A stretch of 26,345 nucleotides of DNA from assembly GCA_963968755.1 (NCBI GenBank), contig CAXAIH010000001.1, positions 1 to 26,345 on the forward strand, given 5' to 3'. The position numbers and the translations under genes are program-made. This DNA comes from an uncultured Flavobacteriales bacterium. GTDB taxonomy: Bacteria > Bacteroidota > Bacteroidia > Flavobacteriales_G > Salibacteraceae. The first letter of the stretch is position 1. Every line of letters starts with the position of its first letter. Below the pieces are notes generated by a model. The model did not search any database and had not been told where the DNA came from. It was given only the letters and a program-made list of their open reading frames with translations. Shown here one piece after another: positions 19,242 to 21,168 of this stretch.

Positions 19242-19944
19242 TGTGAATCAGGATGTTGTGCATTCCTCGTAGCACTAAATTTGGGTCTGCAAAAATGGGA
19301 TTTTTAAGGTCTCCTGCAAATTTCATTGCATCGCCTCCAGTGATCGCTGCGTGAAGATTTTCATGAGCACCTCCGTAACGACTAATCGTTTCATTTAGTT
19401 CATGCAGAATCCCATAAAATGCTCCACTTCTCATTGAATCTTTTGTATCCCTCCCTACTTCAGGCGAAGATTGCCAATCGATTTGCGGAAGGCGCTCTGT
19501 AAAGGCGTGCATAGCTGCCAGGCGCATTTGTAATCCAGGAGAGATTTTTCCTCCGATAAACTTTTGATCCACCACTAAATCGAAGGTTATGCAACTGCCT
19601 AAATCGATGGAGAGCGTGTTTTGACCTTTAAAATATTCCCATGCGCCAAGAGCGCCACAAAAACGATCGTGACCCAAGGTAGGTGCTTTATATGCATTTT
19701 CTATGGGAAGTTTGAGGTCAAACGAGAACGGTATCAAGCTGGAGTCATTTCCTTCTACCAAGGTGTGCGACACATCAGAAGAAACGGAGGCAATGATTGC
19801 GGAATTAAAGGGTTTTAAATCGATTTCCTTCTTAATCACTTTCGGATCTATCGAATCTATCGCATAGGAATCGGAAATTTCGCCATCCAAAAAGGATGCA
19901 AACTTGGTCCGGCTATTACCCACATCGATGCAAAGTCTTTTCAC
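19231..19944 (-). CDS. coaX: Type III pantothenate kinase
   Basis: IDVGNSRTK, LGHDR, IDLGSCITFD, ISPG, ITGGDA. GTG start at 19944. Confidence 0.93.
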   Translation of the reverse strand: MKRLCIDVGNSRTKFASFLDGEISDSYAIDSIDPKVIKKEIDLKPFNSAIIASVSSDVSHTLVEGNDSSLIPFSFDLKLPIENAYKAPTLGHDRFCGALGAWEYFKGQNTLSIDLGSCITFDLVVDQKFIGGKISPGLQMRLAAMHAFTERLPQIDWQSSPEVGRDTKDSMRSGAFYGILHELNETISRYGGAHENLHAAITGGDAMKFAGDLKNPIFADPNLVLRGMHNILIHNEL

Positions 19945-19949
19945 AGCTG

Positions 19950-19957
19950 CAAAAGTA
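19950..19957 (-). promoter_or_regulatory. -7 promoter box for the coaX operon
   Basis: TACTTTTG, 5 nt upstream of the GTG. Confidence 0.6.
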
Positions 19958-20017
19958 GAGATTCCAAGGGGCATTGAATCAGTTGTGACCTACTAGATTC
20001 TGCTATCATAAAATTTT

Positions 20018-20025
20018 TAGATTTG
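20018..20025 (+). promoter_or_regulatory. -7 promoter box for tRNA-Phe
   Basis: TAGATTTG, 41 nt upstream of the tRNA. Confidence 0.6.
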
Positions 20026-20066
20026 CCGACCGATTTCAGGAAGGTTCGCCCGAATGATTACAAGGA

Positions 20067-20214
<148 letters not shown>

Positions 20215-20423
20215 TATGGACGGCTTTATAAAGGTATGACTGAATATATAGCCGCCAGGCTCAGACAGCACAACGCAGGAAAAGTGAAATCAGCCAAGGC
20301 CTTTGCACCGTGGGAGGTAGTTCATACTGAGTCGTACTCATCTACTGAGCGAGCCAGAACGCGGGAGAAATATTTCAAATCTGCTGCTGGTCGACGTTGG
20401 ATTAAAAAGCACCTAGCACTACA

Positions 20424-20557
20424 GCTGGTTCCCCGCCCGTGCCGAACTGTACGTTCGGGCGGGAAATCCAGCTGGCACCACTTCAAAGCCCTAATCACAA
20501 ACTGGACGAAGCTTTTTTTTAGTAACGTATACTGTCTACATATTACAAAGTGAAAGT
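20424..20557 (+). repeat. Direct repeat copy 2 (pseudo-tRNA 3' fragment, decayed terminator, truncated GIY-YIG start)
   Basis: Offset 309 nt before and 341 nt after a 32-nt insertion. Encodes TYTVYILQSES with no ATG. Confidence 0.93.
20432..20463. mobile_element. 32-nt GC-rich palindromic insertion in the T-loop of repeat copy 2
   Basis: CCCGCCCGTGCCGAACTGTACGTTCGGGCGGG with perfect 8-bp terminal inverted repeats. Absent from copy 1. Mobility is inferred. Confidence 0.7.
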
Positions 20558-20567
20558 CGTACGTGCT

Positions 20568-20677
20568 GCTAGCGCGAATCTCCTGATTCGTGCGGGTTTC
20601 ATATTCCACTAAAGAGGTAATCTGTGCAACAGATCGTATCCTTTTGACACTGACCCGAATAGGATATCCGCGCCAGC
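20568..20677. repeat. REP-doublet (REPIN)/MITE-like element
   Basis: GCTAGCGCGAATCTCC (20568-83) versus the reverse complement of 20662-77, GCTGGCGCGGATATCC, match at 13/16. The left unit is itself a hairpin, GCGCGAATC-TCCT-GATTCGTGC. Confidence 0.55.
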
Positions 20678-20685
20678 GAGGGGGA

Positions 20686-21168
20686 TCAGTTCTGTTCTTT
20701 CAGGTCAGATAAGATTTTGGAACCGGCTGGACAGATTAATGAGTTTACCAGCGCTATATCTAGAACATCTATCATGTTCTTTCGGTTGGTGTGAGGGTAA
20801 TCTCGACAGGCTTCAGGTCGCACCTCATACACCTCACATTTATTGTCCTTGCCTAAAAATGGGCAAGGTGTCCGGTTGAAAACGAAATCTCCGTCCTCGT
20901 CCATCTCAACATACTTCTGAATGAACGCTCCTGTGCTCAAGGCTATATGACCCGCAATGCGGTCCATGTCATTTTGATATAAAATAGGAGAGGTTGTTTT
21001 GCAACAATTGGCACATTGAAGGCAATCAATCTTTTCAAATGCCTTCTCATGTGCAGCTTGGAAAGCTTTATCGAGCGACGGCCCGTTCTCTAGGCGCTTC
21101 AAAAGCGCTTCATTCTCTTCTTTGTTATCTGCAGCTTTTTCAAGAAGGGCTTTATAGACAGGATTCAA
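20686..21168 (-). CDS. YkgJ/UPF0153 family cysteine-cluster (putative Fe-S/Zn) protein
   Basis: CLQCANCC, CPFL...CEVYEVRPEACRDYP. A -7 box TACTTTTG lies at 21206-21213. Confidence 0.88.
   Translation of the reverse strand: MNPVYKALLEKAADNKEENEALLKRLENGPSLDKAFQAAHEKAFEKIDCLQCANCCKTTSPILYQNDMDRIAGHIALSTGAFIQKYVEMDEDGDFVFNRTPCPFLGKDNKCEVYEVRPEACRDYPHTNRKNMIDVLDIALVNSLICPAGSKILSDLKEQN

Follow-up and report, generated by a model that had tools for sequence, protein, structure and literature searches.

We analysed a 26,345-nt stretch of DNA from an uncultured Flavobacteriales bacterium (Salibacteraceae; GenBank assembly GCA_963968755.1, contig CAXAIH010000001.1, positions 1 to 26,345 of the forward strand), referred to here as the window. 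Within it, a dead partial copy of a tRNA-Phe gene is split by a 32-nt GC-rich palindrome, which we call PAL-A, at the end of a gene for a small nuclease of the GIY-YIG superfamily. PAL-A probably acts as the DNA partner of a hitherto undescribed selfish element resident in tRNA genes. More specifically, we read it as the cognate hairpin of an Ssn-like nuclease cassette embedded in tRNA genes, of which the window holds a decayed two-unit array, and we give this reading a probability of roughly 0.55. The comparison is with Ssn because these nucleases are the best-studied proteins of single-domain build. Ssn enzymes are 94-aa single-domain GIY-YIG proteins that bind a hairpin repeat only in single-stranded DNA (ssDNA) and cut a few bases beside it (PMC11893778). 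Their genes are flanked by the hairpin repeat, of which many dispersed copies exist in the host genomes, as described for SsnA of Neisseria meningitidis and its NTS/SRM repeats (Chenal et al. 2025, PMC11893778).

The initial annotation of the window had described PAL-A as a 32-nt insert lying exactly in the T-loop of a pseudo-tRNA copy, and direct reading together with a repeat finder confirmed this placement. The ends of the insert form perfect 8-bp inverted repeats around an inner CCGAAC/GTTCGG pair, no target-site duplication accompanies it at 20432-20463, and 24 of its 32 nucleotides are G or C (originally given as ~75%), compared with 44% G+C for the genome. As had also been pointed out, the window contains both the empty and the filled site, the empty one being that of the intact tRNA-Phe gene. 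When folded as ssDNA, PAL-A has a calculated energy of -10.4 kcal/mol (z = -2.9 against shuffled sequences) and stacks on the retained T-stem. A pattern scan for the 32-mer in one genome per prokaryotic species returned at least 120 stretches; all context counts in this study refer to the 126 distinct contexts among the matches listed, for which the left arm was required. In a read-level check that used low-depth Logan contigs, the insert was spanned by an independent contig from a public marine metagenome run (X1). Neither an empty nor a joint allele turned up among these contigs, a negative that carries no weight at such depth. Because the 32-mer recurs in 126 contexts and in this independent contig, the insert is neither a chance sequence nor an assembly product.

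Across the 126 contexts the 32-mer is nearly invariant, and variation above 5% is confined to positions 3, 14, 17 and 19. Its hosts belong to at least four bacterial phyla and include Bacteroidota, Patescibacteria (at least nine lineages), Bdellovibrionales and Scalindua; Bacteroidota hosts are numerous, and some are cultured isolates (Zeaxanthinibacter enoshimensis DSM 18435, Cecembia lonarensis LW9, a Niabella and Thermobacterium salinum). Copy number was 20-51 per genome in five genomes checked, in which a reversed control pattern gave 0 matches. When 40 relatives were searched at the DNA level, three further genomes of the class proved to carry the palindrome, with 84-92% identity over ~40 nt. 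PAL-A is the most widespread subfamily of a larger family of palindromes that have CCYGCCYG...CRGGCRGG ends.

In the source assembly (2.28 Mb in 412 contigs, 91% complete), by contrast with these relatives, the window copy is the sole match. No second copy was found there within 8 mismatches or by the generic pattern CCCGCC...GGCGGG, and the possibility that PAL-A is multi-copy in this genome was rejected. The initial annotation had held that uniqueness would speak against a mobile element; uniqueness applies to this genome but not beyond it, as relatives and other phyla carry many copies. Its description of PAL-A as an ultra-small element is supported; the 32-mer forms a genuine non-coding repeat family whose insertions are precise and cause no target duplication.

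Other classes of repeat and vector were rejected. PAL-A has the 8-bp inverted ends of a miniature inverted-repeat transposable element, but no target duplication was present in the window or in 85 of 124 contexts, the others showing merely 1-3 nt chance identities at the flanks. It is not a CRISPR repeat, as the copies are solitary or have shared flanks. No Rfam match for the hairpin was obtained for 19900-20800 at E values up to 1. PAL-A is absent from 2.9 million viral contigs, where two pattern matches lacked the left arm and were due to chance. The nuclease protein had no match in 50,697 phage records and no homologues in plasmids, both at E 1e-3, and a phage or plasmid vector was rejected on the basis of these DNA and protein searches.

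The locus is a decayed two-unit array made up of tRNA-Phe, a terminator, the GIY-YIG gene, a T-arm piece with PAL-A, a decayed terminator and a second GIY-YIG stub (Table 1). The tRNA-Phe(GAA) gene, 341 nt upstream of PAL-A, is the sole tRNA gene in the window and the sole tRNA-Phe gene found in the assembly. According to the repeat finder, GCTGGTTC at 20115-20122 and the adjoining 20123-20214, which spans the tRNA-Phe 3' end, the terminator and the first 36 nt of the GIY-YIG gene, are duplicated as 20424-20431 and 20464-20557. The two units are 91% identical over 56 nt and 86% identical over 43 nt, and the 32-nt block is the sole length difference within their tRNA part. It lies between GGTTC and AAATCC at T-loop position 56/57, the match that spans the junction placing it at tRNA position 56 of 74, and the dead copy covers tRNA positions 49-73 only. 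The terminator stem of the second unit is no longer recognised by the terminator scan.

No stop codon closes the nuclease frame where its conserved domain ends; the frame continues across the dead tRNA piece, PAL-A and the decayed terminator as far as a TGA at 20551-20553, giving 124 codons compared with ~80-100 in relatives. The long frame through 20424-20557 is not a real protein tail, and a protein annotated at 20179-20553 would bear a spurious extension of 40 residues. For practical purposes, 20424-20557 is dead DNA. The window hairpin would then be a relic without a role for the cell, its sole consequence presumably being that the dead T-arm can serve neither as a tRNA nor as an intact loop site.

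Table 1. Features of the tRNA-Phe/GIY-YIG locus in the window
Feature	Position	Strand	Basis or remark
tRNA-Phe(GAA), intact	20067..20140	+	ARAGORN; Rfam tRNA 78.2 bits; genome tRNA census
Empty site GGTTC^AAATCC in intact tRNA-Phe	20122/20123	+	
Intrinsic terminator of the tRNA, 13-pair stem then T-run	20144..20178	+	Terminator scan
Small single-domain GIY-YIG nuclease gene, ATG at 20179	20179..20553	+	Translation; Pfam PF01541
GIY-YIG conserved domain, residues 1-82	20179-20424	+	
Duplicated T-stem 5' strand and first T-loop bases (GCTGGTTC), start of dead tRNA-Phe piece	20424..20431	+	Sequence, repeats
PAL-A, 32-nt GC-rich palindrome	20432..20463	.	Differs from family consensus at positions 10 and 17
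Duplicated rest of T-loop, T-stem 3' strand and acceptor 3' strand of tRNA-Phe (dead)	20464..20480	+	Repeat D1
Decayed copy of trailer and terminator	20481..20521	+	Repeat D1, 91%
Remnant of second GIY-YIG gene, first 12 codons; start codon lost, ends at 20557	20522..20557	+	Repeat D2, 86%

The nuclease matches Pfam PF01541 at 46.3 bits (cut-off 22.6) over residues 3-71. All residues invariant in the family are retained (Y6, Y17, G19, R27, H31, N32, E63 and K67; 39 relatives), and membership of the GIY-YIG superfamily is indicated by the domain together with the catalytic residues (two Tyr, Arg and Glu). The protein consists of a single domain, with a conserved part of 82 aa and no other Pfam domain, and an NCBIfam search with it gave no match; the open frames of relatives range from 77 to 150 aa. 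The family gene was present in 154 of 401 genomes of the class at E 1e-8 or better. The 2.28-Mb source assembly contains one gene of this type, its other PF01541 matches being of UvrC size apart from one divergent open reading frame (ORF). This small GIY-YIG-like ORF (G000:C193:76-291, minus strand, 22.6 bits to PF01541) is located at a contig end and is not beside any tRNA or palindrome. A genome of the same genus (G001) holds an orthologous tRNA-Phe and nuclease gene (68% protein identity), indicating that the cassette is old in this lineage. There, the nuclease gene is 3'-truncated and runs directly into the next gene; as neither a dead tRNA copy nor a palindrome is present, that locus offers no orthologous empty site.

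A link between the palindrome and the GIY-YIG gene had been suggested from the window alone, and it is supported at the level of the locus, the neighbourhood and the genome. The source genome has one hairpin and one gene of the family, and only 7 nt separate the hairpin from the end of the gene's conserved domain; a random site would lie this close with a chance of about 4e-4. Within 771 kb of sequence around PAL-A copies, 15 of the 17 GIY-YIG ORFs are no more than 600 nt from a copy (p about 3e-9). Among ORFs up to 1.2 kb from the 126 PAL-A copies, GIY-YIG is also the sole recurrent family (14 loci). The next-ranked families, each at 4 loci or fewer, are housekeeping genes or spurious frames, and neither RAYT-like nor other transposases appeared there.

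For the genome-level comparison, palindromes matching the superfamily pattern were counted in 80 genomes with the GIY-YIG gene and 80 without it. At least 10 were present in 18 of the former and in none of the latter (p = 1.3e-6), and at least five in 29 and three, respectively (p = 1e-7), although both p-values overstate independence as the sampled genomes are kin. Palindrome subfamilies also clustered on the nuclease tree, requiring 18 changes compared with a mean of 23.2 after shuffling, and a value this low occurred in 1 of 200 shuffles. One well-supported clade unites nuclease genes of Bdellovibrionales and Paceibacterota, all of which have PAL-A. Because the tree is built from proteins of ~80 aa and is poorly resolved, these patterns are suggestive of co-evolution and no stronger than that.

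Every GIY-YIG-linked PAL-A copy shares one cassette architecture, consisting of an intact tRNA gene, a small GIY-YIG gene and a whole or partial duplicate of the same tRNA that bears the palindrome and lies on the gene's far side from the intact tRNA. Where the gene is upstream of the intact tRNA, the dead copy is a 5' piece with a D-loop insert (e.g. loci L106, L132, L141 and L093); where it is downstream, the dead copy is a 3' piece or nearly whole, with inserts in the D-loop, the T-loop or both (the window, L024, L043, L051 and L091). The same layout with the same 32-mer was found in Bacteroidota, Saccharibacteria, Peribacteria, Paceibacterota and Bdellovibrionales. The unit is often repeated in tandem, and each such array ends in one clean tRNA (L051, L159 and L150).

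Circularity was avoided by using a second set of loci found via the protein alone, namely the best 29 GIY-YIG loci from the 401 genomes of the class. Twenty-four of these adjoin a tRNA gene (mostly Arg, also Ser, Phe, Ala, Met, Asn and Asp), and 25 bear a palindrome with the CCYGCCYG...CRGGCRGG ends. Their dead copies are split exactly at tRNA positions 17/18, 21/22 or 55-57 by palindromes of 16-50 nt belonging to several subfamilies, and cassette palindromes sit in the D-, anticodon- or T-loop of the dead copy. In one Bacteroidia genome, we observed tandem arrays of up to 11 near-identical small GIY-YIG genes with a spacing of ~457 nt (G222:C9:906043-910392; G324:C23 and C34).

The division between clean and interrupted copies could alternatively mean, along the lines of a protective role raised in the initial annotation, that the palindrome is kept as a site-breaker in the dead copy, where it might give immunity to re-cutting, interrupt a direct repeat and so block deletion of the gene, or ensure that no faulty tRNA is made. 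Intact partner tRNAs never have the insert whereas dead copies nearly always do, the inserts occupy loops that define tRNA shape, and arrays always finish with one clean tRNA. However, no protective role is needed to account for this asymmetry, for which purifying selection on the working tRNA suffices. Recombination is not blocked in the window, where uninterrupted repeats of 56 and 43 nt lie beside the insert, and the locus does not gain immunity, given that the same loop site persists in the intact tRNA. The scattered copies outside tRNAs, moreover, have nothing to protect. We therefore consider a site-breaking role quite unlikely, although it would be compatible with the Ssn-like cassette proposed here.

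With regard to insertion sites, the joined flanks matched a tRNA across the junction in 28 of the 126 contexts, with 21 in the D-arm and 7 in the T-arm. D-arm insertions had their mode at 21/22 (GGTTA^GAGC), and both orientations of the slightly asymmetric core were found at the same D-loop site; T-arm insertions occurred at 55-57 (GGTTC^GA) and once at 61. Most copies (78%) fall outside recognisable tRNA sequence. At 75 independent non-tRNA sites, T occupied position -2 in 41 (p = 2e-6), G occupied -1 in 41, and A occupied +2 in 42 (p = 1e-7). The preference of PAL-A is thus two-fold symmetric, roughly T-G^N-A. Since GGTTA^GA of the D-loop and GGTTC^RA of the T-loop both fit this motif, the T-loop targeting proposed in the initial annotation is too narrow, D-arm sites being three times as frequent as T-arm sites.

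Proximity to tRNA genes was likewise pronounced. Twenty-nine PAL-A copies lie within 600 nt of an intact tRNA gene, compared with ~2% expected from a rough estimate based on ~45 tRNA genes per 3-Mb genome, and 12 of them have a GIY-YIG gene alongside. Two Zeaxanthinibacter genomes that share flanking genes yielded no clean 32-nt presence/absence pair, their spacers differing by hundreds of bases of several repeat families.

In-silico excision of the insert restored a complete tRNA in 1 of the 126 contexts, and a tRNA intron or a functional tRNA carrying the insert was rejected on this basis. The same result bears on the broader idea that the hairpin acts in RNA, whether by stabilising the end of the nuclease mRNA, as part of a structured tRNA-like RNA, or as an intron-like insert that is removed. 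Its position would suit such a role, as in both cassette orientations it lies on the gene side away from the intact tRNA, i.e. at the message end, and the stacking on the T-stem is consistent with it. Yet both orientations of PAL-A occur at one tRNA site, most copies lie well away from any gene of this kind, no family in Rfam matched, and no RNA run containing the window stretch was found. We also know of no bacterial enzyme that removes such inserts from tRNA. Taken with the excision result, these points make an RNA role very improbable.

One locus may be cited in favour of an RNA role. At L025:1603-1689 (G008:C110), a full-length tRNA-Val(GAC) gene carries PAL-A in its D-loop and is followed by a truncated nuclease gene. 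It is the exception among the tRNA-linked PAL-A copies inspected, which otherwise have an intact partner tRNA alongside. A second Val(GAC) gene was not found in this 98%-complete genome, in which a Val(TAC) gene is present. Either the interrupted gene is dead, with Val(TAC) covering for it, or its tRNA tolerates the insert.

Several observations weigh against an Ssn-like cassette, and some of them favour a different view, in which PAL-A is an independent selfish palindrome moved by another host or element function and GIY-YIG cassettes merely supply dead tRNA copies. Such copies offer the preferred T-G^N-A loop sites at places where insertion is harmless, and the site preference persists outside tRNAs. 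Furthermore, 94 of the 126 copies have no intact tRNA or GIY-YIG gene within 600 nt, and copies adjacent to a tRNA commonly lack a neighbouring nuclease gene (17 of 29). Genome G041, from which locus L030 derives, contains 51 PAL-A copies and no intact small GIY-YIG gene in its contigs, its GIY-YIG content being UvrC and a 30-residue fragment of a small GIY-YIG protein. This is a metagenome-assembled genome, in which repeats assemble badly; the hairpin may have spread there without a resident nuclease, or the gene may have been lost in an assembly gap.

The remaining counterarguments concern homology and chemistry. The nearest PDB matches of the nuclease are weak, the closest solved relatives being merely UPF0213 proteins (E = 0.0075), followed by Slx1 (E = 0.1). 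The published SRM motif (PMC11893778) has no match at or near 20400-20500 and only 3 in the whole genome. Dead tRNA copies end at variable points (positions 23 to 57), which indicates that the gene itself does not insert at one fixed site. Finally, a hydrolase alone cannot join DNA, and insertion at non-homologous sites, where 78% of copies lie, has no worked-out chemistry.

Despite these points, we regard an independently moved palindrome as unlikely. No other gene family recurs near PAL-A, and the source genome's single copy would by chance rarely fall so close to the domain end of its single gene. In the comparison of 80 with 80 genomes, high copy numbers were confined to those that have the gene, and the occurrence of such palindromes in nearly all protein-led cassettes is too regular for opportunistic landing. 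These observations instead favour the nuclease as the partner of PAL-A.

The resemblance to Ssn extends to several features, including a single-domain GIY-YIG protein of ~90 aa, a hairpin repeat of 20-50 nt beside the gene with more copies dispersed, a repeat copy number that tracks gene presence, and the existence of many protein/hairpin pairs with their own sequences. There are also differences. The PAL-A sequence is unrelated and outside the published SRM motif, and in the present cassettes both components are lodged within tRNA genes, accompanied by a dead duplicate of the tRNA. In addition, PAL-A is nearly two-fold symmetric and occurs in both orientations, whereas NTS is directional. The text of the Ssn paper contains neither 'tRNA' nor 'Bacteroid' (PMC11893778).

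Its authors liken the gene-plus-repeats layout to an insertion sequence and to repetitive extragenic palindromic (REP) sequences with their REP-associated tyrosine transposases (RAYTs) (PMC11893778). The RAYT/REP analogy had also been drawn for the window and is apt, although Ssn with its hairpin repeats is the closer precedent (PMC11893778). Like REPs and REPINs, PAL-A is a short extragenic palindrome with tens of copies and no target duplication, and it flanks one associated enzyme gene that is often single-copy. Unlike RAYTs, however, the enzyme here is a GIY-YIG hydrolase and not an HUH/Y1 transposase of the IS200/IS605-like kind; PAL-A has no GTAG-type guide tetranucleotide, and its preference for tRNA loops is new. 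Compared with both Ssn and REP-RAYT-type pairs, the new features are insertion in tRNA loops, tRNA duplication and identity across phyla.

Homing endonucleases of the GIY-YIG superfamily carry a separate DNA-binding domain. The nuclease here has no second domain, although its tRNA layout and arrays resemble those of SegB, one of the free-standing enzymes of the Seg type. SegB is a GIY-YIG enzyme encoded beside tRNA genes that drives tandem amplification in phage T6 (PMC13096335). It shares with our cassettes the location of the gene among tRNA genes, the tandem units of gene and tRNA, and the spread between hosts of different phyla (PMC13096335), but it is a larger, phage-borne protein for which no hairpin partner has been described.

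Yeast mitochondrial GC clusters (PMC4478555) and Rickettsia palindromic elements are comparable in being tiny GC-rich palindromes that spread in an AT-richer genome and can land inside structural-RNA genes. Their sequences and hosts are unrelated to those of PAL-A. Rickettsia palindromic elements are 100-150 bp long, and to our knowledge neither they nor the GC clusters have an associated GIY-YIG cassette or tRNA duplication. The 32-mer core was not found on either strand in a full-text search of 8.4 million papers, and literature word searches found no description of tRNA-embedded GIY-YIG cassettes or of this palindrome.

Mobilisation of PAL-A by the nuclease could proceed as follows. By analogy with Ssn and NTS, the nuclease would bind the folded hairpin in ssDNA and nick beside it or at similar loop sites, and the break would be repaired by copying from a palindrome-bearing relative. 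Such repair could spread hairpin and gene among tRNA-like sequences and build tandem arrays, as the tRNA sequence flanking the cassette would supply homology in any genome with that tRNA. Repeated cutting of the restored clean tRNA might extend the arrays, much as SegB does in phage T6. Selection would purge insertions from the working tRNA and leave them in dead copies alone. Survival of copies only where they are harmless would explain why the working tRNA is always clean and the dead copy bears the insert.

More tentatively, PAL-A and the tiny GIY-YIG nuclease may together be a selfish element of a new class, parasitic on tRNA genes in different bacterial phyla. In such an element, the nuclease would nick T-G^N-A sites, in hairpin or loop DNA, within the parts of tRNA genes that correspond to the D- and T-loops, and repair would copy in the hairpin and gene while rebuilding the working tRNA. 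The 32-nt hairpin alone might multiply to tens of copies and would then be the smallest non-autonomous mobile element known. As a universal landing pad, the near-identical tRNAs of all bacteria could explain the identity of the 32-mer across phyla.

If the nuclease does act on the hairpin, the system would be a minimal mobile one, with a gene of ~250 nt and a site of 32 nt, lodged in the most conserved genes in biology and for that reason able to cross phylum borders. It would also account for clutter that confuses annotation and assembly at tRNA loci in genomes of Bacteroidota and of the candidate phyla radiation, in the form of partial tRNA duplicates, pseudo-tRNAs split by hairpins and tandem arrays of tRNA and nuclease genes. 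The mechanism would likewise answer a question left open by the Ssn paper, namely how hairpin repeats of the Ssn type multiply (PMC11893778). Many natural enzyme/site pairs would further be added to the Ssn-type single-strand nucleases under development as tools.

Some further arrangements of PAL-A were observed. Gene-less mini-units, consisting of a 5' tRNA piece with PAL-A, a spacer of 40-70 nt and an intact tRNA, were present at seven loci (L031, L046, L052, L072, L112, L119 and L131), and these are either deletion products or non-autonomous versions of the cassette. Many solitary copies lie within imperfect tandem-repeat runs of 7-8 nt (L047, L042, L050, L066, L090, L117, L122, L138 and others), with units such as CAGTCCA/CAGTCGG or GGTGATAC and the insert at a unit boundary. 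At L121:160-320, two PAL-A copies and a different 16-nt palindrome, CCCGATAGCTATCGGG, are found inside a 5S-rRNA-like sequence that scores below the Rfam gathering threshold; CCCGATAGCTATCGGG also occurs in L066, L069 and L070. This locus points to a palindrome-riddled dead 5S copy or to tolerated inserts.

A second, unrelated hairpin repeat with the core GCTAGCGCGAATCTCC-GATTCGTGCGGGT occupies 20565-20613 of the window and starts 8 nt past the second nuclease stub. Further copies are present at several sites of the same-genus genome G001, one of these occurrences being a tandem array. In L025, the GIY-YIG gene is truncated by a related end (TGTTGCTAGCGCGG), and the hairpin of 20565-20613 may be another small mobile repeat that truncates these nuclease genes.

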